Under the pieces are notes generated by a model that was given only the letters and a program-made list of their open reading frames with translations, was not told the origin of the DNA and searched no databases. The position numbers and the translations under genes are program-made. Shown here in pieces: positions 4,202 through 37,400 of a DNA stretch of 64,000 bases. The stretch is from Microthyrium microscopicum (lineage: Eukaryota), in assembly GCA_010405405.1 (NCBI GenBank), contig MU004237.1, positions 286,191 through 350,190 of the forward strand, given 5' to 3'. How positions within the stretch are numbered: the first letter of the stretch is position 1; each line of letters opens with the position of its first letter.

Positions 4202-4833
4202 ATCGCAACTGGTTAACTAGCGCATTGATTCGATGCCAAGACTTTCCTCAGCCTTATGGATAAACCTCAACGTTTGCACAGCAAATATAGTTGCCCCCAC
4301 CAGTTCTGCTCCGTTCAGAATCTAATCGGCAAAACTTTGATACCTTTGGGTGGTCTATCCACAAGGCAACCGGTTCAGTTCGCATTGCAATGCAACTTCA
4401 GCGTCACTCAAGCACTTGATATTTCCAAACATCAACCATATCAGACTTCACATAATACATCACAGCACCAACAAATCAACCACCAAATCGTAATTCATAA
4501 AACTAATCGCACAAGGCTCACAGCCCAACAGCAAGAGTAACCCTCTCTCGCTTTAAGCATCTTTCAAACAAATCTAAGTGAGCCAGAGCCCGCTACTCCT
4601 AACAAGGAGTGTGATAATGGCACAAAACCAAACCAAGAGCCCCACAGCGCCATTCGCCTAGACAAGTACCGCTTTTTTCGCCAACGCATTGAAGATAGTG
4701 AACACAAAAGCTGAACAAAGTAAAACAAAGTAAACGGAGCGACCCAGGTAATAAGGTTAGATAAAAAACGCCATATATGCCAAGTCAATGCAACAAACAG
4801 GCTTAGCCCACGACTCCATCCAGCATGACTGGT

Positions 4834-6978
4834 CTATCTTGCTCTCCCTACCATACTCGCATCATGCGCCCGATACGTATCCTCATCATCATGATGTAGC
4901 GTAACACTGTTAAACTCCTCAAATGGATCCGCTGTTTCCTCGCCCGGTGTTCTTAGACCTGAATCTAGTGGGACGCCCTTTGCCGCCTTGAGATTCGAGC
5001 CCAGTGAGCTCATGTCCACGCTGGCGGATTCCTTGACGTTGCGAAAATTTACGGTATCAATGCCGGTGCGGCCTTGATGTGGAATGATGGGTGGTTTGGA
5101 GTGGCGGAGGAGGGCCCAGGAGGTTGTGCGGAAGAAGGGGTGGGCTTTGATGTCTGATGCGCCGGCGCGGGAGCCGATGCGGCGGAGTTCGTCTTTTGTG
5201 AGGAGTTTTTTGATGATTTGTTTGCAGAGACTGAACAGATGTGGTAAGTATGGTGGATGAATGTAAAGGGAGTGGAAAGATGACTGCTTACTTTGATACT
5301 TGAGGATAGCCGGCGCCTTCAGGAAAGGGGACCTCGTCACGGAGAATGTTGGCGAACGTTGCGTTGCGGTTCTTGCCTTTGAAGGGAGTGGTTCCATACA
5401 GCATCTCGTATATGAGGATTCCTAATGTCCACCAGTCGACGGCACTTGTGTGTCCGCATCCTTTGATTACTTCTGGAGCAATGTATTCTTCTGTACCTAC
5501 AAAAGAGTTTGTCCGGAAGTCGGCGATACATGATTTGGTGTCGATTGCGGGTAGATTGCTTGTCGAAGATCCGTTGCGGCCAAGAATCATGGTTGGTGCT
5601 CCTCCAGTATCTGATTGTTTTGAGAGATCGAAATCAGACAACATTATATGGCCGGACTGATGTAGTAAGATGTCTGAAAATGTCAGTATATAGATATCTG
5701 AGAGAAGTGGTATAACACACTTTCTGGCTTGAGATCACGATATATGAATCCCATGAGATGTAGATATTCTAGTGCTGCCGTGACTTCTGCGGCATAAAAT
5801 CTTGCGGCGTCTTCATCAACACATTTGTTGGGTCGCGTTTGTAGTGCTGCATCGTTTAGTATAGATCTCATGATACCGAAAACGGACTAACCTCTGAAGA
5901 ACTCTCCTCCGCTGCAATATTCCATGCAGAGATAAAGCTTGTCCTCCGATTGGAAGGAGTGATACAAAGTAACGATAAAAGGATGATTACTTGTCGCGAG
6001 AATTTCTTGCTCCGCTAGAGCTCTCTTGATCTTGTTTCGCTTGATCATCTCTTTCTTGTCAAGGACTAGATCCAGTCAGTAATCATAACTCGGCCTCTTG
6101 ACACGCTGTTTCGACATACCCTTCATCGCATACAGCCTTGTGGACTTCTTTTCCCGGACCAGATAAACCTTGCCAACATCGCCCTTGCCAATAAGTTTTA
6201 TCTTGTCAAAGCTGCTAGGCCCAACTTCCACACTACGGACTTTGATGGAATTGGAACTATACGTCCGTCTAAAGGCGACACTTTCTCGTATTTGACCGGG
6301 AGTGGGTATTCCATTAGCTCCTGGTACGGGTAATAAGTTGCCCATTGGTTCCACAAGACTCAAGGTTGAACCTCCGGCGTGTTGCAGTACAGGCTGTTTC
6401 CCTAGCTCTGCAGTAGAAGGCCGATCTGAATCCTTGCCTTTGGCAAACAGACCCTGAGCGTTTGGCGCAGAAGCTACGCGACGCAGTTTACGCGCCAATT
6501 CCTCTTTGCTTGCTGCCGTAGCCTTATCCCCGCTCTTTTTTCCCTTTCCTGGTAACGGTGGTGTATCTGGCGGTGAAGATGGTACGCTGCCATCATTGTG
6601 ATGGCGGATGGCGGGGAGTCCTTGGTGAACGAAATAGGGATTGGCGTTTGCTGTTGGTGAGAGGGTGACATCTTCAAGCGCGTTGCCTTCGGAGGCTACA
6701 GTGGTTGACCGACTGCGGCCAATATGGGGGAGGAATCTGGAATTTCTGAAGGATCTTTCTTTCTCGGGTTTTGAGGGTCTAGATGTTTCGGACGATCTTT
6801 GTGACGAGCCTCGCTCATGGTGTTTGTCGCCGGAGTTTATCCTGAAGAAGCTCTTGATCTTTTGCGTAACTTGTCCGTTGGATGATTGGCGATTGGAAGA
6901 AAAGCTGGTGGCACTGAAGACTCGCGGTTTCTCCTTGTCTTCTTTCGGAAAGGAGAGGTTGCTGAACAGTTGTGTCAT
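4834..6978 (-). CDS. nrc-2: AGC Ser/Thr kinase, nrc-2 / Kin82-Fpk1 (flippase kinase) family, multi-exon
   Basis: [23 protein letters not shown] (family-typical), [15 protein letters not shown] and [11 protein letters not shown] spread over spliced ORFs 6076..6978, 5683..5871, 5288..5644 and 4834..5397. Confidence 0.93.
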
Positions 6979-26064: not shown

Positions 26065-29000
26065 ATGCACATCGTGAAACCAGACTGGCTTCGACATACC
26101 CGTACGTGTCTTCCGCCACTTTCTATTATTTATAGCTAATCAGTCTAGTTGCCGGTGAGCTTCGCGACCATGAAGTATACAGTTGCGATGTCTCCCCTGA
26201 TGGAAAACGACTTGTAACCGCCGCCGGAGGTACGATCCCGCCTACACCCTCATTGAACATAACTAAACTATATCCCAGACTCCTACGTCCGTTTATGGTC
26301 TACCGAATCTGTATATCGCTCTCTGGATGGCGATTACACTGGCCCAAAACAATTAGCTGCCCTGAGCAACCACTCTGGCACCATCCACTCCGTCCGATTC
26401 TCACCAAACAATAAATACCTAGCATCCGGCGCTGACGACAAAATTGTCTGCATTTACGGACTCGACCCGACTCCTCCTGCCCAGACCCAAACCTTTGGTT
26501 AGATTCCGAATGCTCCACGACTTACAATTGCTAACGGACTGCACTAGGTTCAAATGAAGCACCCCCAGTAGAGAACTGGCGAGTATTGCGCCGTCTTGTA
26601 GGACACGACAACGACGTGCAAGATATTGCCTGGTCATATGATTCCTCCATCCTCATCTCCGTGGGCCTTGATTCCAAAGTTGTCGTCTGGTCCGGTCATT
26701 CATTCGAAAAATTAAAAACTCTCTCCCAACATCAAAGTCACGTCAAAGGCATCACATTCGATCCAGCAGGGAAATACTTTGCCACATGTAGCGATGACCG
26801 AACCATCAAAATCTTCCGCTTTTACTCTCCACCTCCCAATGCGACAGCCCACGATCAAGTCTCGAACTTTATGCTGGAGCAAACAATATCCGCCCCTTTC
26901 ATAGGCTCTCCTCTTACAACTTATTTTCGAAGATGTTCATGGTCACCAGACGGTTTACATATTGCAGCTGCAAATGCCATGAACGGACCAGTTTCTTCTG
27001 TTGCTATCATCACTCGTGGAACCTGGGACAGCGCCATCAATTTCATAGGCCATGAAGGACCGGTCGAAGTCTGCTCGTTCTGTCCTAGAATTTTCCACAA
27101 GGACAAAACCGACCCTAGCGTTGAGCACCATCAACCGTCAATCACAGTCGTCGCATGTGGAGGTCAAGACAAATCTCTGAGTATATGGAACACGAGCCTC
27201 ACGAGACCGCAGGTTATCACCCAAGCTCTATCAGGAAAACCTATATCTGACTTGTGTTGGTCTCCTGATGGCGAGAAGCTCTTCGTCACTACTCTGGATG
27301 GTGGCATTCTTACTGTCATCTTTGAACCAGGAGAGCTCGGTTATGTTGCTCCGCTAATAGAAAATGACAAAGCCCTCAGTCGATATGGTGCTGGTCGCAA
27401 GGCTGGAATAGTTGAGGGCCCTGAAGCCTTGCTCCTAGAAGAATTCAGCAAAGCGGATGAATTGAAGGGAGTACAAGGTCGAATGGGAGAACTCATGGGT
27501 GACAGTGGAACACAGATCGTGGTCAATGGAAACTCAGGTCCTACTACTAATGGGACAACACCAGCCACGAACGGCACTTCTAATGCCATGGATCTTGACA
27601 AGCCATCTCAGTCTGTTCCGGAGCCAAAGGTCAATCAATTAAAGCAGCGAGTCGAAATTGTCGGAGGCAAGAAACGAGTCAAGCCATTATTAATATCCGC
27701 AACTACAGCACCTATTTCGAATCTACCACAGACACAACTGGTCGCAAACACCACACAATCATTACGAGTTGGAGATGGTCCTCATGCTGTATTAGATCTG
27801 TCGAAGCCATACGATGGACTACCCAAGGGTGGCTTGACTGGGCTTCTAATAGGTAATAAACGCAAATGGGCTGATATTACAGCCGACGAGGAGAAACGGA
27901 CCGAGAAACGATTTGGAGCATCAGTCAAGGACGGCGCCGCACCATTACTCATTAACGGTGAGAATGGGCTGGTACCTCCTAGCATGGTTGATCGCGCCTT
28001 GTTAACCGCTCCCCCCGTCATAAACCCCGCCCTAGTAACCAGCCAAATGCGACTGGCTACCCCAGTACTTCGAAGTGTCATACTCCGAACCGCCGATGGC
28101 TCAGATCCCGCCAAAGCGGGCGAGACAGAAGCCACGTCCGACGTAGTAATGCTCGAAGCACGCAACGCCACAGGTCCTTCCCGTACAGGACGAGCTCAGG
28201 ATAGAGACCCGACTCGGATCAACTGTACGAAACAAGGCATCTCTCTCTGGCAAGATTATCTCCCACGCCCCGTCAGCCTCGTCACCGGCAACAGCCATTT
28301 TTGGGCCGCTGGTTGCGAAGACGGCTCTCTCTACGTCTGGACCCCGGCGGGACGCCGCCTCCTTAACGCGTTTATCCTCGAAGCCCAACCGGTCATAATG
28401 GACTGTCGTGGCTGGTGGCTCATGGCCATCACCGCTGTAGGCCAAGCACATGTGTGGAACATCAAAACCCTCAGCTCCCCACACCCACCTGTCTCGCTCG
28501 CCCCAATCTTTGACGTCGCCGTTCTGTCCGGCGGACCACATCTCAGCGCCACACCGGGAATTGCATTTGGCCGCCTCAACTCCAACGGCCGCATCATCGT
28601 CGGCATGACCAACGGCGACGGCTACTCATATAACCCTGGCATGTTTGTCTGGCAACGACTGTCCGAGCAGTGGTTCGCCGTTGGTAGCCAGTACTGGAAC
28701 ACCACCGACTCGGCTATCAGCAACATCCAAGCCAGCGCACCTAACGGTACGTCTCATGATGACGGCGACGACGAATTCATCTCCGCCGAGAACATCTCCG
28801 CAGGCATAATCCCACTCCTCGAGCGCAATACCACCGCACAAACGCTCCTCCGTGGACGCGCATACTTCCTCCAACGCCTCATCAAGCAATTGCTCGTAGC
28901 AGAAGGCTTCGAAGGCTTCGAAGCCAACGTATCCGTCGCCCATCTCGAGAACCGTCTTGCGGCAGCCATGGCGTTGGGCGCAAAGGACGAGCTCAAGATA

Positions 29001-29370
29001 TATCTAATGATGTATGCCAAACGAATCGGTGCTGAAGGTCTAAAGGCCAAAATCGAAGAGCTTCTGCGAACACTCCTTGGCGATATCTTCGATGAGGATG
29101 GGACAGAAGTCAAGCCAGCAGACGTCAAAGCACAGGGCTGGAATACGAAGGAGAAGGAGATCTTGGGGTGGAATCGCATGGACTTGTTGCGCGATGTTGT
29201 TCTAATTCTCGGTACGTTCAATCCCCCCCTATTCTCATAATGTGTATTCAAAACTAACCAAATTGATAGGCAAACATCGTGATATCCAGCGTCTAACCGT
29301 GCCATATTCACGTCTTCTGGGCGTAGGCGAAGAACGTCTGCCAATCGAAGATGCGAATATGAAAGAGTAG
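26065..29370 (+). CDS. HIR1: Histone chaperone HIRA/Hir1 (WD40 + B-domain + C-terminal Hira domain), 5 exons
   Basis: MHIVKPDWLRH; WD40 repeats (GHDNDVQDIAWS, HVKGITFDP, FRRCSWSPDG); GKKRVKPLLI B-motif; HLENRL; last exon KHRDIQRLTVPYSRLLG ending at TAG 29368-29370. Confidence 0.95.
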
Positions 29371-29886
29371 CAATCTCTCATGTCTCATCAACAATCGGGC
29401 ACACGGTCGGGGAAAGGCAAGCAGCGCTTGCAGATTGAAGACACGCCTATGGAGGATTAGCAGTCTGCCACCAGCAACAGCAACTTGGACGAACAGTTGG
29501 CGGCTATACCTAATGATGTGTTTGATGACGCGGGCGAGCAGATCGTGGAGAGTACAGAGTTGGATTCGGCAAAACCAAGCACAGCTTTGCGCTCCTTGTT
29601 ACCAAAGCCCAGTGCGATTTCAGAGGAGAGGGGTTCTGTTGCGAAGGATTCGCGGTCCGGTGCTTCGGACGAACTGGGTCATTTTCCTGATACAGTGCCT
29701 AGTAGCTCTACCAAGCCAGTGGCTAACTTTGCGATGGAAACGATGTCGTCAATGAAGAAGAAACTGGAACCAGCGAAGAAACGGGTCGTGTCATCAAAGG
29801 CCGCGTCTTTACAATCTCCTGAGACCGAGGCGACATTGAGGAAGAGTGCGAGGACTAAGGGAAAGAGTGTAGCCTACACCAGATAG
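29371..29886 (+). CDS. Putative in-frame C-terminal extension of HIR1 beyond two TAG codons
   Basis: Same frame as HIR1, with only one internal stop (29458-29460). Protein-like composition ending KKKLEPAKKR..LRKSARTKGKSVAYTR. Confidence 0.5.
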
Positions 29887-31082
29887 GTTGTAGCTGCTGT
29901 CGATTGTATATTATTAGTAGGACAGATACGAGTTTGTGTATGAATGCTGTGCCTGGCTGATCGCCAAGGCGAACATAACTTTTCCAAGTTTGAAGCTCTA
30001 TGACTTTGTGATGATGTGTTTCTACAAGGTGTGGCTGGATGCATCAAGGGCGCATGGATATTATTGATGTTGAGACGTGAGCGATGCTATCTCAAGGCGT
30101 TTACTAGCTGGACATGCCTATTCTTTCACTAAAAGCGTCTTCATCAGATCAAACATCAATCTGACTCACGACCAAGCCGACGAGCAAGACAATCCGCTCT
30201 GCTAGAAAGCCTCTGCTTTCTCGACGCTTCAGTGACCATAACATCAGGTCAAGTCAGCACACCAGAGGCGATCTCAACAACACGCAAACACAAGACCAAA
30301 AGAGTTGCAAAGCAAGCATATCTACTTGACGCTTTTGATTCGACTAATAGAGGTAATACAACCGTCTCTAATAATAAATACTGTGCTGTGTACTCGTCTT
30401 CACCAGCAACAAAAAAAAACGAAGAATAGAAAAGTCCCTTGTGTAGAAAGACAGCAACACAACCACCAAGTCCCCAGCTCTCCTCTCCAAGCCTCCGTCC
30501 TTCCTAACACAAGGAAAGGTATAAAAAGTGACCACAGGCTGGTGATTGATTCGCCTTTTCGTCAGTATGGGTAATAGTAGTGGTTGATTGTAAGAAAGAG
30601 AAAAGAAGCACGCTTTTTGTGATCTTTTTGGTCTGCTGGATATCAAATAACAAAAAGTGTTCCTGGTATCTTGCCCTCATTACGCTGATGGAATAAAAAG
30701 GAAACCCCCGCCACGTCCTGGTGGGTTGGGTGATTCTTGGGTAATGACAAGAATGCAATAACGCCGGCCCTGATGATTTGATGTCGGTGACTTTTATAAT
30801 ATATACCGATAGGGGAGATGTTCCCCGGTTGCATGCATGGTTGATGATGGTTTGACAAAATGAAAAGTGTTTACAGTGACAGCTGTGTGATCGCGGTATT
30901 GGTATGATTGACTGGTGAGTGAGAGAATGAAGTGTGTTTATGTGGTCGTTTAACAATCAGAACACTGATTGTGGAGATGGATTTGATCAGCTGAAAGGGT
31001 GTGACAACGAGATATTTGAGGAGGAAACGGCTGACGAATGGCTCATGATCTGGGAAGGTTTGAAGACTTGTCGGGTGGATGG

Positions 31083-34000
31083 TCACCGATCAAGAGCCTC
31101 CGACAAGTATTTGCCAATAGAATTCGTGATGCTTGTTTTCGTCTTTTCGCTCAAGTTTCCGCTTTGCCAGACCAATTTCAAGGACTGGAACGCTCGTCGA
31201 TCCTCCTCTTCAAACTCTTTCATCTCCGTCTTGACCCTTGATATTAAGTTTTCGAGAACGCAATCGCGAATTAAAGTTGGATGAAGTAGCATGCTGATTT
31301 GGAAATTGATGAGTTGTTGCACGCCAATGTCGTTATTCCGATGCTTGACATCCTCCTCAGCAAGATGTCGAAACTCCTCATACATGCGGTGATTGAAATT
31401 ACGGACTAAAAAGTGAGACCAAAACTGGTACAAAACGACCATGTCGCGGGGATAATTATCGTTTGAAGAATGCTGTCGCTGATTCAAAGCGTTCAAACGC
31501 ATGTCGGCATAAAGCGCAGAGGATGTATTTTCTGGCTTTTCAAAGGCTGGAAGGTCTGGGTCCTTTGGCCAGTATAGTTGTCGCGGGGGGATTGATTCGT
31601 CCGAAGGATTAGAGCTTCCTGAAGTGGTTTCCCAACTGGTGTGCGGGTCCGATGCAAAAATAAATTCCCTCACCTGAGGGGACGTAAGATCCTCAGAAGG
31701 ACTTCTGCAAAACGCCGAGGTTAGACGCAATTAAATATTCACACCGTCCTGGCTTACTCATGCGAGGATGAAGCCCCATTTGGAAGAGAGCTGGCAACCA
31801 CGCCGTTGACGCCCTGAGGCCCTTCCATGCTCGTGCTGACCACATTTCCGTTCGAGAGTGTCTGGGCCGCTGGAATTTGTGCGACGGAACCATTTGCATC
31901 TGGATTACGGTACATGACTTTAAGAGTGTCGACTTGAGCGTCGGACATCGCATCTCGCTGGGTCTCTGGATGTCCGTTGGGTTGATAACCAGCATACTGT
32001 CCTGGAGATTGAACGCGGTGATTGGTGTTAGCAGATCCGTTGGCAGCGAAGCCATGTGACATTGGTGGTGGGGACATTTGGTACTTGGCAAAGTCGTTTG
32101 AGTTTCCAGAGGCCGATCTAAAATATTCCGGCTGGTATATCTGGTTACTAAATGGCGGAACTGATCCTGGGGAACCTAGAGGAAGTGAGGGATTTCGAGC
32201 GCCGTTGCCCATAAACTGATCAAAGACAGCTGGATGGGGCATGGGGGCAACAGGAGCTGCTTCAACTCCTTCATGTTGAGCCTTGGGGTCTCGTTGGTTC
32301 ATTTCCAAGATCCACTTCTCCCATCCTTCTCTCTTCCGCACACGATCAATGCCATCAACTCCTAAACGATGTTCAAGGTTATGGGACTCTCGGCAGACAT
32401 ACTTGATCATTTCCATATCAGTGGTGAGAATCTTGACTCGGTGGAATCCCGCAATCAGATCGAGGGGAATGAATCCTTCAGAGTCCATGTGACCGCGAAG
32501 GAATATATCACGACACAAGTTGTCGATAGAGAAATAGTACTCTCTAAAAGTGGTGGTTAGCTCTTTACTTGTAACATTGTGATACAAAAGACTTACAGTT
32601 GGACGGAGACCATGCCTGTCAGGTTGTATGGATCAATGGTAGCGGAGTATGGTACAGCACTCATCGACTGGTTTGTAAAATCGTACATGCCTGGCGCAAC
32701 GTAGGTATTGAGTGAGGGCAAAGCACCGTTCGCCATATAATTGTTGGGGTACCGGCCATATGGGTCACCAGCTCCAGGCCCACGACCACGGAAGTTATTT
32801 TGATTTCGTCCCCACATATCGTAGCCCATGGTTGGAGACCGGGTCCCAAGAGCACCATTTTGAAATCCATGTGCGAGGTTAGGGGAATTTTGATGAGATG
32901 AGAAGCCATGATGGCCATTTCGCCCTCGCATACTCTGTCTGCGATTGTTGAAAGTGTTGCCATTTCGTGGTGGGAATTTAGGGTTATTCGAATCTGTGAA
33001 AACTCGCTTTTCCTCTTCTGCAGCTGGAACAAATTCCTCGACAGTTGGACGAGTTCCATTCTCTGGAGTGGCGCGCTGGCCATTAGGAATCACGGGTGAC
33101 TTGAACTTGTCCGCATCTACACCGTTCTCGGGCTTTCGTGGGGCTTTAGTTGGGTTGCCACCAGTGCGAGGTAGAGTGTTAGCTGCAGGGGCACGTTCAT
33201 CAGCACCAGTAGGTCGTGATCGTCCTCCTCCATTGACAACGTCTTTGGAAGTTCCAGCAGGTGTCTTGGACTCCCGCCGTACTGGAGTCTCCTCACTGAC
33301 AGAACGCTTTCCTCTCGGTGAGGCGCTTCGGCCTGATCGGTCTCGCTTCCAGTTGGAGGCAGTATCGCCACCATTTCGATCTGTTGGAGATGCCACAGGT
33401 CTAGAGCCGGCTGGGGATGTCCTAGAAGAGCTCTCTCGTCCCCCGCGGGCTCCTCCCCGACCACCGCGCTTGGCGAGCCCATTCGGGAGAGGTGTATTCC
33501 ATACAACACTATGTTGGACATCGACCTTTTTCCATTCTGGCTTCTTGTGTGACGACTTGGTTGGCTCAATCTTTTCAACCTTCTCTGCGGGCTTTTTGCG
33601 ATCGTCTTCAACTGCATGCTCAGGCGTTGGCCAAAAGACTTCATCCTGCAGTGGTGGAGGTGTAGCCTGAGGCTTCTCATCCTTCTTTGGCGTCCGCTTT
33701 GGTTTGGTCTCTTCCTCTGACCGTGCATCACGTTTGGCTTCCTTAGAGCGTGATGTAGCCTGGTCTGGTTTCTTCGCTGAGTTATCCGTTTGCCCACCGG
33801 TCCGTAGAGTCGCAGCTTTGCCCACGTTACTCGTATTCATGTTTTGTGGCTTCTTGGTAGACGTTTTCGCGTTTGCTTGTTCCATGCGCGCTTTCCAAAC
33901 ATTGACCGCAGGAACTGGTGCTTCATGTTCTTTCTTTGGCGCATCAACCTTGATCCAGCTATCCTTCATGTCCTTAGCTTTGTCTTTAACTGTGGTATCA

Positions 34001-34410
34001 CTAAGATCGGCCGACTTTTCGATAGCATTTGAAGCTTGTGAAATATTTTCCCAAGTAGATTCAGATGACGTGTTGGGGATCGATGCAGCATCATCTTCGC
34101 GCTGAAGCGTAGAGGTAGATGACTCGATATATGCCATGGACGGAGGACTTATGGATGCGGTCGATTCCGGCTTGGGCTTTTGTACTTCAAAATCAGCAGG
34201 CGTTGGTAGCTGGTTAGATTGTTCAGCCTCTTTCTGTCTAGAGGTAGGCGCATCGTCATCTGGCTTGATTGTTGAGCTGGTTGACTCCGTAGCGGGCGCG
34301 CCAGGAGACGCAGGAGTTATTGGCCCCGAGGGCATTCGACTAGAGGAATTTGAGGGTTTGGAAGATGTGAGACCTTTTGCGGCCTGCGCGTACGAGAATG
34401 GAACAGACAT
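31083..34410 (-). CDS. La-related RNA-binding protein (LARP1/Sro9-like: La motif + DM15 region), 3 coding exons
   Basis: FSYAQAAKG N-terminus; PVPAVNVW; QL/EYYFSIDNLCRDIFLRGHMDSEGFIPL La motif; LYQFWSHFLVRNFNHRMYEEFRHLAEED DM15. Confidence 0.92.
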
Positions 34411-37400
34411 GTCTGTAGCGGTTCCTGTTGTGAATGTGTGCAGCAACGCGCTTTTCGAGCTTCGAAGCTCAAGGTGCCAACGGGCTATATCCTATGGAGG
34501 ATAGAACCAGCGGCCTTCTCCACTCCACACCAGCTAGGTCGCTGGGCGACGCAACAGCTGAAACAGTATATGCTGATGAAGCTGAAAGCCGGAGGCGATT
34601 GGTATGGCTACCAAGTCCAAGTAGTCGCTATGTGAGGGAAGCGTTTTGGAGGCGTCGTGAGGTCGCGAGCTTCTCTAAGCAAATAATGACACAGAGAGAG
34701 GATGAAGATGGCAGTGGTCTGAGGCAGAAGGACGGTTAGAGTTGTTTGAGAAGATAAAGGATTAAAGTCGCAAGTGAGAAGAGGATGAGAGAGAGTTTGA
34801 TGAGGTTGCAAAGAGTTGGAGGTCGCAGACAAAAAGTGGAAGGCGCGGCTCAGACTCTTAAGCGCACGGGATCTGTGGTAAGGTCCAAGATCTGGCAGGA
34901 GCAATCCAGTTGTGCTAGACGTGGCAACCACCAGAAATAATGACCAAAGTCCAGAGACAATTTGCAATGAGAGAAATTTTATGAGGACAAGAGAAATGAC
35001 ACGACAAGTCTTCAGTGGGGGATAGAGTTGTGTGAGGGGAAAAGATGCAGGAGAGCAGAAAAGATTACAGTGGTAAACCGACAGGCAAGGTAACACTAAC
35101 AAGCAAAGTAGAAAAGCTACCGTACTAGTGAAATAGCTGGGCAACACACGATGACTTGGGCATACCTCAAAGATTTGACTGAAGAGTTAAAACTTGCTTG
35201 TGTTCGTTTGTGCGCAAGTGAAGAGTGGGGATAACCAGACTATTAGTCTATTACTGTGCAGAAATTGACAGCCAGGCCCGGAGTTAGGGACTGAGAAATG
35301 CTGACAGTAAATGGCATCCACAGACAAGGGAAAAGGTGAAAATGTGAGGCAAAGAGAGGTGACGGGCGAGGTCTGGGACCGTTATGGAATCAGAAGCCAA
35401 CACCAACAACCAACAGGTAGCAACACAGATCAAGCGGAAGGAAGATGCTGGAAAGAAATGACGAGTGGTATGACCGATCTACTCATTTCCAATCTGATAT
35501 CTTTGTAGTGCTGACCCAAAGGATACCTGCATTCAAGTTGCTAGTAGTTGGTCGTCTGCCACGGTGCTGGATCTCTTGCTGTTTGAAACTTTGAATGCTG
35601 GTCTTGCTGGAAATTCAATAATTGCAGATGGTCGTGTGCAATTGAGCCTAAGCCGTACCGAATAAAGGGCGACTAAAGTGTCGTTTGATCCTTGCTCGGC
35701 CCGACACCAGAAACACCCAAGGTCGGAATATCGGAAGATCAAAGCCAATATCAAATAAACTGAAAAAAATCGTTCCCACTTACATAAGTTCAGAATAGTG
35801 CTATTCAAGCTCAACTCCTGCGGACAAGGCGGTTGCGATTCTCTCGTCAGCCACCGGCCCTTGTAACGTCTTTGGTGTGACAAATGTTCGTACCCAACGC
35901 TCAGTGCCTGGCGGAGCGTTTTGTCTGCTGAGTGAGCGGTGAGGCTCTCCTCTGCCTGTGCAACGATGAATATTACTATTCCAGCAAGATGTCTTCAAGC
36001 TTGGAGCAAGCTGATAAGTCAAGCCGCAATTGAGGTCTTCAGCGAGGAGGCAGAGAAATAACTGTGGCCTGTTTGAATATAACGTTTATGCGAGAGAGCA
36101 AGCGATGAGAGGTAGTTGTTTGAGGATTGACAAGTTGGTTACTCGCTCGTGCTAGGAAGCAGTCGTTCGCAGTTGCGTAATACCAACAGCTTGTAGGCAG
36201 TAACAGGGCGATGGGTTGCGTACTAGCAGCTGTAGGTAACGACAGATCAAGTCACAGTTGATGATCAACTAGTTTGTACCGTGGAAGGAGGAGGAGGCAA
36301 GAGGGAGGAAGGAGGATGACAGCTACGTCGAGTCACTTCTTAGAGAAGAAGTAGCTAGATAGCAAGATGGAAGAGGTGAAGATGGAGAATAATTGAAGAG
36401 GGAATGGAAGGTTGTGGGAGCTGTGCGTGAGGCTCGCAGCACTAGGAGGAGTAGTTTGGCAGTGCGGTGGAATTTTTAGCTACCGTTCAACGGAGGATGA
36501 CCGAACCACAGAAACCACCGTAGTGAGAAGCGTCTGAGCAAGTCTGATGAATGTGACAGAGCCGCTGCACCGAGCAATGCCGTCTAGTCGTCCGACATTA
36601 TCTTATGCACGAATAACCCAGCCAGTAACCACCCACAGACTGCCGCAGTACTGTGTAAAGTGTCCTGCATTCTATTCATTATAACCGTCCTCCTTCGTAC
36701 CTGATAAAATACAAGCGCTGTGAGCGGATCTGGAGCAGCACTGCAGCAGCGAGGCAAAGCTTGCCGCGTTGCTGATTGGTCGCTCTGTCCTTTGCTTTGA
36801 ACAACTTCATCCGTCTTTTTATGCACATTCCCTCTATCAACATCCTTATAAACATCACTTAAGATATCTCTGAACTCTCTCAAAATAGATCTCAATGCAT
36901 CTACACACTACTCGTAACTCCAGTTAGACATTATCCTAGTCATCTCGTCTTCAAATCCTCTGTCCCTTCTCCGGCCATCGGCAGCTGCAATGAAAAAATA
37001 TTCATTGAGCCCGAGCTCTTCACACCAACCAGTTGACATGGACAAGCCTGGTCTTCCCGTCAATACGCTGCAAATTATCATCTAACTCTAGTCTCTATCC
37101 AGCATAGAGCCCTCTCGTGCTGCTGGCTTTTCTAGGTACTTACGGACCGTCTGTCAGTCCGTTCGCACAGCTATTAAATCTCGGGTCAGTCTTCTTTCTG
37201 CCATGTTTGGACCAGCTGTTAAAATGCCTGTCGCTTCCGCTTCCATTTGCGTAATCTGCACTTTAAACTATCCATTACATGCCAAAGAATTGATATTCCA
37301 TTATTTTATACACGCTATCAAATTTCTCAGAGCTTCTTAGAAATATACGTAGAAGCTGCTTATTTCCCCAGCCTAATTTCCGACCATTGGCTCTCGTTCT

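Follow-up and report, generated by a model that had tools for sequence, protein, structure and literature searches.

The HIR1/HIRA gene of the leaf-dwelling fungus Microthyrium microscopicum is followed, in its own reading frame, by two TAG stop codons in series and then by a tail of 141 codons that has the statistics of coding sequence and is not a chance open frame. The locus lies in a 64,000-nucleotide stretch of contig MU004237.1 (the window), on the plus strand. To judge from their alignment, the two stop regions arose by tandem duplication of a unit of about 90 nt that has since diverged and that comprises the last 16 codons of HIR1, the stop, CAR-TCT and the next codons. The best reading of this arrangement, and a tentative one, is that translation may continue past both UAGs to give a minor or conditional long Hir1 isoform. 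For HIRA/Hir1, a conserved H3 chaperone that acts independently of replication, we know of no report of a long isoform obtained via stop bypass.

HIR1 occupies positions 26065..29370, TAG included, in five exons (26065-26101, 26149-26229, 26279-26497, 26548-29211 and 29270-29370) separated by four introns of 47, 49, 50 and 58 nt. The spliced translation of this model is 100% identical to the deposited 1033-aa Hira-domain-containing protein of Microthyrium microscopicum (P0003), and the annotated HIR1 thus stops at the first TAG. Pfam places the CAF1B/HIR1 beta-propeller (N-terminal WD40; PF24105, 2.4e-50) at residues 22-376 and recognises the Hira domain (PF07569, 1.5e-75); translation identity and domains together bear out the identification of the gene as HIR1, which had been made from the letters alone. 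As is typical of the family, the Hira domain is followed by a short exon of the KHRDLQR..PYARLLG type and then by an acidic end. The canonical end, at TAG 29368, falls 32 residues past the KHRDIQR motif. Among 120 Hir1 relatives retrieved, 73 have a modelled last exon and all 73 end 25-51 residues past KHRDLQR, typically with a C-terminus of the form ..(D/E)xxM(I/V)TDx, against 204 residues past the motif for a read-through Hir1 in M. microscopicum. Judged by sequence, copy 1 of the duplication is the orthologous Hir1 end.

The last exon reads ..LLGVGEERLPIEDANMKE (..IEDANMKE) up to TAG 29368-29370, after which come CAA and TCT. The same frame stays open for 29 codons (29371..29457, QSLMSHQQSGTRSGKGKQRLQIEDTPMED) that end ..QRLQIEDTPMED (..IEDTPMED) before TAG 29458-29460, with CAG and TCT next, and then for 141 further codons (29461-29883) that end ..TLRKSARTKGKSVAYTR and are closed by TAG 29884-29886. 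The earlier note had HIR1's frame running through both stops to 29886, and every coordinate of that description holds. The tail ORF (29461..29886, stop included) begins with an acidic stretch, passes through a Ser/Thr-rich middle and KKKLEPAKKR, and terminates in LRKSARTKGKSVAYTR. Its single-sequence fold prediction is mostly disordered (pLDDT 60, pTM 0.16), which fits disorder and is weak evidence for it. The first 90 codons of the tail are without an ATG, the first in-frame one being codon 91 (29731); the nearest ATG upstream, at 29380 inside the inter-stop segment, is separated from the tail by the second TAG. Sequencing error was rejected as the origin of the stops: there are two TAGs, and the first stands where all relatives stop. 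Reassignment of TAG, or its bypass throughout the window, was likewise rejected, TAG being in no excess among the 47 in-frame stops of the window that split two ORFs of at least 60 codons (14 TAG, 14 TAA, 19 TGA).

The duplication was detected by an offset scan. Copy 1 (29319..29408) consists of GVGEERLPIEDANMKE, TAG 29368-29370, CAA TCT and 11 more codons; copy 2 (29409..29498) consists of GKGKQRLQIEDTPMED, TAG 29458-29460, CAG TCT and 11 more codons. At an offset of exactly 90 nt, 37 of 57 bases are identical between 29319-29375 and 29409-29465, as compared with a mean of 28.8 and a maximum of 35 for the best match at any offset in 300 shuffles. Identity over the whole unit of about 90 nt is 50/90, that over TAG-CAR-TCT is 8/9, and the protein alignment pairs GVGEERLPIEDANMKE-stop-QS with GKGKQRLQIEDTPMED-stop-QS. 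Neither a repeat search with seed 6 nor TRF (0 rows) reported the duplication. The likeness of the two stop contexts and of their peptides, pointed out before, thus stands above shuffled sequence, and what falls is their independence: because one context was duplicated, the two count once. Over the first 19 codons, a comparison of copy with copy gives a pS of 0.91 and a pN of 0.23 (ratio 0.26), with differences at 10/11 synonymous and 10/43 non-synonymous sites (Fisher p 7e-5). Silent sites are thus saturated, yet residues are kept, which would lean toward translation through at least the first stop; this argument is suggestive only, because it uses 19 codons picked where identity is highest. 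A pN/pS taken between copies does not separate the two lineages. Had copy 2 undergone neutral drift for as long as its silent sites imply, its replacement sites would be expected to be about twice as diverged, a point that is again suggestive only.

Under the local base composition, an open run of 141 codons has a probability of about 0.0018. The three-position base make-up of the tail gives a chi2 of 40.4, against 7.1 +/- 3.9 in open-frame nulls, none of which (0/1000) reaches the observed value; an equal-length piece of HIR1 exon gives 47.3 and the next two pieces downstream of the tail give 10.9 and 3.6. Each half of the tail is periodic by itself, with 5/1000 nulls reaching the value of the first (chi2 20.2) and 1/1000 that of the second. 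The inter-stop segment, too short for such a test, has a chi2 of 7.6, reached by 333/1000 nulls. When codon usage is scored with 12 long ORFs of the window as training set, the tail obtains 0.098, open nulls obtain -0.036 +/- 0.054 (8/2000 reach the tail's score) and real coding windows 0.176 +/- 0.081. At -0.194, an overlapping ORF of 130 codons in another frame of that strand (29363-29755) behaves like a shadow frame. The frame-likelihood scan is positive mainly over about 29420-29780 and slightly negative over the last 50 or so codons of the tail, where the codon bias is not coding-like. An antisense gene was rejected as the source of the periodicity: the minus-strand ORFs over the tail are of at most 96 codons and score -0.081.

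The composition of the locus changes beyond the tail. GC is 0.42-0.58 across 29300-29899 and drops to 0.34 (T 0.38) at 29900-29949, within a UTR-like shift at 29887..29950. Because GC drops there, untranslated-looking sequence begins past the tail's stop and not past HIR1's annotated stop. No UTR- or promoter-like composition is seen between the HIR1 stop and the tail (29300-29899), and the level GC up to 29899 therefore leaves no room for a 3'UTR plus a promoter between the two. TGTATA, which we take to be a yeast-type 3'-end element, stands at 29905 and occurs nowhere else within 29201-30500. The next gene is LARP1-like (La and LARP1 HEAT domains); it lies on the minus strand, convergent with HIR1, from about 31083, and the convergent gap between the two genes is about 1.7 kb. 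The lack of an in-frame ATG in the first 90 codons of the tail, the lack of a UTR- or promoter-like stretch and the convergent orientation of the neighbour together favour a shared mRNA and a link of the tail to Hir1.

The tail has no recognisable counterpart in the collections searched. No homologue was found in a 5.8-billion-protein index among proteins of 77-247 aa (29 candidates) or 248-2000 aa (2187 candidates), nor by HMMER in 1.84 billion representatives; because there is no self-match in either protein library, the deposited proteome is without a model containing the tail. A search of the ESM Atlas gave no usable match, and in a BLASTP comparison of the tail with Hir1 itself the lowest E was 2.1. 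No Pfam family matches the tail at E <= 10, and the shugoshin-like and H3-like motifs proposed for it find no support there, the R-x-S-x-R..V-x-Y resemblance being one seen by eye. Metagenomes scanned for the conserved C-terminal region of Hir1 yielded 49 related loci at 53-68% identity; the last exon was located in all but L004, L010, L038 and L049, which leaves 45 loci, and several of the 45 are near-duplicates, so that they represent fewer than 45 independent species. The best tblastn match of the tail on the 49 loci (E 0.17) is off target, in HIR1's own middle region. The tail is present in 0/45 related HIR1 loci and in 0/73 related Hir1 proteins. The comparison with relatives that the earlier note had proposed, by tBLASTn of the extension, thus goes against conservation; its in-frame HIR1 tail is upheld as to frame and coding-like statistics and fails as to conservation among relatives. 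The 45 loci end HIR1 with TAG in 23 cases, TGA in 13 and TAA in nine; none has TAG-CAR at the stop, and a single locus (L014) has TGA-CAG. Their post-stop frames stay open for a median of 17 codons and a maximum of 108, and none of the nine post-stop ORFs of at least 45 codons is periodic (best 42/500). The closest relatives available are 68-77% identical in the conserved Hir1 C-terminal domain, a distance at which a fast-evolving disordered tail could have become unrecognisable. On this sequence comparison, the tail is a lineage-specific and not an old feature of Hir1, a statement that says nothing on selection within Microthyrium.

How might such a tail come to be attached to Hir1? In the normal case HIR1 would give the 1033-aa protein, which like that of all relatives ends at the first stop (TAG 29368). 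The second TAG with its CAR-TCT would stem from an old tandem duplication, in frame, of about 90 nt that span the last 16 codons, the stop and the codons after it, and the lineage-specific 141-codon sequence beyond it, which has no usable start codon of its own, would have evolved as coding sequence. The HIR1 mRNA would extend to about 29900, and a minor or conditional share of ribosomes would pass both UAGs by near-cognate readthrough at UAG-CAR or, less likely, after UAG-to-UGG editing. The product would be Hir1 with a disordered tail of about 171 residues, acidic at first, then Ser-rich, then basic. What is observed is the layout of the locus, the duplication, its coding-like statistics and the non-conservation; the placement of the tail on the HIR1 mRNA, its translation and the route to it are inferred. 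As to its role, one may conjecture nuclear or chromatin targeting, or destabilisation as in the edited tails of Fusarium.

Readthrough stops of type I are defined by a six-base context, which also works in yeast. Their consensus is UAG-CAR-YYA according to the excerpted text of PMC3542737, and both HIR1 stops, as UAG-CAR-UCU, match it at five of the six bases: each has UAG and CAR (TAG CAA at 29368, TAG CAG at 29458), and at both the second downstream codon is TCT, YYU instead of YYA, with U and not A as the sixth base. The claim of a leaky context made in the earlier note thus survives for UAG-CAR and not for YYA, and it goes without a 3' structure: no stable structure is predicted 3' of the stops, with z of +0.20 and +0.31, no better than shuffles. 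A hairpin is predicted ahead of the first stop, in the last HIR1 exon (29303..29361, plus strand; arms 29303-29317/29347-29361, 87% complementary), at -29.1 kcal/mol with a z of -2.59, and 4/200 shuffles fold as well. It is followed by a weak 4-bp stem whose 7-nt loop, UAGCAAU, contains the first stop; the second TAG falls in an internal loop, and the fold around it does not surpass shuffles (z +0.20). The HIR1 arrangement resembles the type-I readthrough of the tobacco mosaic virus replicase in its UAG, in the CAA or CAG and two pyrimidines that follow, in its in-frame coding-like extension and, going by the same excerpts (PMC3542737), in that no 3' structure is needed. It differs from type-I readthrough in its sixth base, U, in having two serial stops 90 nt apart, and in that HIR1 is a cellular chromatin gene whose feature occurs in 0/45 related loci. 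Programmed readthrough is usually recognised by conservation of extension and context, which was found in 0/45 loci, and by a coding signature in the species itself, which is present (0/1000 nulls for periodicity, 8/2000 for the codon score).

A further parallel is found in fungal enzymes that acquire cryptic C-terminal extensions, made by readthrough or alternative splicing, for peroxisomal targeting in Ustilago and Aspergillus. As in those enzymes, there would be a normal short protein and a minor longer isoform, with a candidate motif at the very end. The peroxisomal extensions are short stretches conserved between species, typically behind UGA, and carry a defined targeting signal at their end; by contrast, the Hir1 tail is 171 residues long, species-specific and without a recognised signal.

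Several observations speak for a long isoform: the frame is continuous with HIR1, the tail combines periodicity and codon score with 90 codons lacking an ATG, GC is exon-like to 29899, the post-stop ORFs of related loci are aperiodic, and between the copies silent sites have diverged with residues and TAG-CAR-TCT (8/9) kept. The stretch between the stops is also exon-like with poor intron signals, and UAG-CAR is the type-I core in the excerpts of PMC3542737. On the other side, two serial stops multiply the inefficiency of readthrough, and little product would be expected; the context is YYU and not YYA, without a 3' structure; tail and TAG-CAR occur in no relative examined; no deposited model has the tail; the pN/pS has a 19-codon basis; and the last 50 or so codons are not coding-like.

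That the tail is no part of Hir1 at all, but a young orphan gene of unrecognised structure or the recently inactivated relic of a lost gene, is a doubtful reading that nevertheless has some of the same observations on its side, the coding-like statistics being silent on which start is used. Such a gene might use ATG 29380 and remove the second TAG by splicing, or encode a small basic protein from ATG 29731; ATG 29380 is in frame, ATG 29731 and 29740 carry G or A at -3, the gap of about 1.7 kb to the LARP1-like gene is roomy enough for a small extra gene, and being in frame with HIR1 by accident has a one in three chance. The failure to find a homologue in the protein libraries searched is as expected for an orphan; the deposited proteome, however, holds no gene model for one, and no UTR- or promoter-like composition separates the HIR1 stop from the tail. 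A start at 29380 would require a frame-keeping intron that skips the second TAG, and those available begin with poor donors (GTCTCA, GTCGGG) and lack a branch site, whereas a start at 29731 leaves unexplained the periodic first half of the tail (chi2 20.2, 5/1000). For a relic, the second TAG cannot be a fresh nonsense mutation because it is as old as the duplication, and neutral sequence of that age, as gauged by the divergence of the copies, should have gathered stops.

Less favoured, and unlikely, is a splice of the exitron type, in which the donor GTAGGC at 29323 (after the conserved ..PYSRLLG) would be joined to 29460/29463 or to 29541, both stops being removed and the acidic end of Hir1 replaced. 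Exitrons are parts of a coding sequence whose optional removal by splicing keeps the frame, and the candidate (29323..29463, plus strand) is like them a GT..AG stretch, a multiple of three in length and inside coding sequence, whose retention gives the canonical protein; it differs in being a prediction from the bases, and its signals fall short of those in HIR1's four introns. The phase-0 donor and the frame-keeping acceptors TAG 29460 and CAG 29463 are where they had been pointed out before, and the doubt then raised about a branch site was well founded, no CTRAY lying 10-14 nt before either. Every listed pairing of the donor with an acceptor (TAG 29370, TAG 29460, CAG 29463 and CAG 29541) keeps the frame; the shortest, of 48 nt with its acceptor at the first TAG (29370), would produce an isoform with the C-terminus of copy 2, ..IEDTPMED. 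GTAGGC fits the loose donors of the gene, which are GTACGT twice, GTACGA and GTTAGA, three of HIR1's four introns also end in TAG, TAG|CAG forms a tandem acceptor, and CAG 29541 is preceded by CTAAT at 28 nt and by ATGAC at 13 nt. Splicing would also supply the long isoform in useful quantity, whereas two leaky stops would not. Against these points, the candidates measure 138/141 nt (to 29460/29463) and 219 nt (to 29541), as compared with 47-58 nt for the real introns, and they depart from the intron pattern of the gene: the four real introns have CTAAY or CTAAA 10-14 nt before the acceptor, a GC of 0.36-0.46 and a T of 0.22-0.40, whereas the candidates have an exon-like GC of 0.50-0.52 and T of 0.18-0.19. 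The deposited gene model does not use the splice, and the residue conservation of copy 2 would be unexplained if it were purely intronic.

It is improbable that there is nothing functional here, only a chance open frame in HIR1's 3'UTR or intergenic DNA that was noticed since many genes were scanned: at a probability of about 0.002, frames of 141 codons are expected about once per window (53 stop-to-stop ORFs of at least 141 codons occur in it, exons and shadows included), related loci show junk-like in-frame post-stop ORFs of up to 108 codons and the tail is neither conserved nor endowed with a domain, yet periodicity, which was not the selection criterion, matches that of a real HIR1 exon (40.4 vs 47.3; 0/1000), the codon score beats the open-frame nulls (8/2000), the other long same-strand ORF (29363-29755) is shadow-like at -0.194, and composition shifts sharply at the tail's stop.

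A long isoform obtained by passage through both UAGs keeps its place as the favoured, if tentative, reading, and what remains to be weighed is editing as a second route past the stops. According to the excerpted texts of PMC11156358 and PMC11087585, A-to-I editing of mRNA is on record for Sordariomycetes and Pyronema only, has not been found in Aspergillus nidulans or Botrytis cinerea, and depends on an Ame1-Tad3 interaction with its origin in Sordariomycetes. For the Dothideomycetes, the excerpts of PMC13123824 and PMC10041177 report no editing, the class figuring just in phylogenetic comparisons; a 2024 review, as excerpted, leaves open whether editing occurs in classes not yet examined (PMC11156358). 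In Fusarium and Neurospora, stop editing is frequent and results in long tails that are disordered and destabilising (403 genes in F. graminearum), as stated in the portion of PMC13123824 at hand, and the favoured editing triplet is UAG in that of PMC11156358. Both HIR1 stops have the U before the edited A that UAG implies. As to placement in a hairpin loop, the first TAG sits in a small predicted loop (7 nt on a 4-bp stem), and the second lies in an internal loop (z +0.20). Parallels are found in the stop-loss and premature-stop-correcting editing of Sordariomycetes, as in Fusarium graminearum DBF2 and PUK1, with UAG stops and a long predicted-disordered extension in the excerpts of PMC13123824 and PMC11156358, and particularly in PUK1, where two tandem UAGs both need editing according to the excerpt of PMC4817773. 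Unlike in Sordariomycete editing, the host is a Dothideomycete and the HIR1 stem is only 4 bp. Of the editing route suggested before, the UAG triplet is in place and the lineage speaks against it, editing being reported only from Sordariomycetes and Pyronema in the excerpted literature. A very improbable elaboration would have a stage-specific editing system in Dothideomycetes convert UAG 29369 and 29459 to UGG in fruiting bodies, switching Hir1 to a long form whose tail (the acidic stretch, KKKLEPAKKR and the terminal RKSARTKGKSVAY) would alter its stability or tether the H3.3 chaperone to chromatin, with the duplicated cassette acting as a double lock against the long form in vegetative cells.

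If the tail is not made, the locus would still show cleanly how a stop cassette, once duplicated, and a coding-like orphan ORF can mimic programmed readthrough. If the route were editing, fungal A-to-I mRNA editing would reach a class in which it has not yet been looked for. If the tail is made, two leaky stops, one the duplicate of the other, would follow each other in a natural gene, and a core chromatin factor would have gained, in one lineage, a disordered module for regulation or targeting.

The last exon of HIR1, the histone-chaperone gene, contains a predicted 15-bp stem (window 29303-29361; 87% complementary; fold z -2.59) that pairs the PYSRLL codons with the IEDANM codons. Complementarity of 75% also links its 5' arm to the IEDTPME codons (29437-29452) of the duplicate copy, the second unit of the tandem duplication of the HIR1 end, and two alternative predicted hairpins are therefore possible. 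Between the two in-frame stops, an in-frame ATG at 29380, 10 nt past the HIR1 stop, opens the 26-codon reading frame MSHQQSGTRSGKGKQRLQIEDTPMED, which runs to a stop at the second TAG; its start context is weak, with a C at -3.

Within the tail ORF, the coding-like run in frame behind HIR1, positions 29683-29705 resemble a textbook 3' splice region, namely TTTTCCTGAT and, after 12-15 nt, CTAG|TAG. This candidate acceptor is probably unused, because the sole reasonable upstream donor, GTGCGA at 29612, would lead into a shifted and closed frame. Beyond the tail's stop lie approximately 1.2 kb free of assigned features, followed by the next gene downstream, a LARP1-like gene on the minus strand (31083-34491; La domain, 2.7e-19; LARP1 HEAT region, 1.3e-13) that is convergent with HIR1.

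A related HIR1 locus from the metagenome scan, L040, is distant (57% identity to the window in the Hir1 C-terminal region). Its HIR1 stop is likewise a TAG, behind which 68 protein-like codons continue in frame (4749-4958) with weak periodicity (49/500). BLASTP detected no similarity between this stretch and the window tail (E 0.89). The stretch closes with TPRRRSARSRRTSLRFGFSH, the last residues of which are similar to the window tail's TLRKSARTKGKSVAYTR, each directly before a stop; this likeness may be coincidental, and the motif pattern for the two ends was drawn up only once both sequences were known. Two related Hir1 protein models, P0026 and P0048, both of which carry the DIQRLTVPY variant also present in the window's Hir1, extend 16-18 residues beyond the usual ..MQD end, and this added segment is rich in Ser, Thr and Ala (..S(V)T(S)AT..LGFV..). 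Where the stop falls is thus variable in the DIQRLTVPY part of the Hir1 family.
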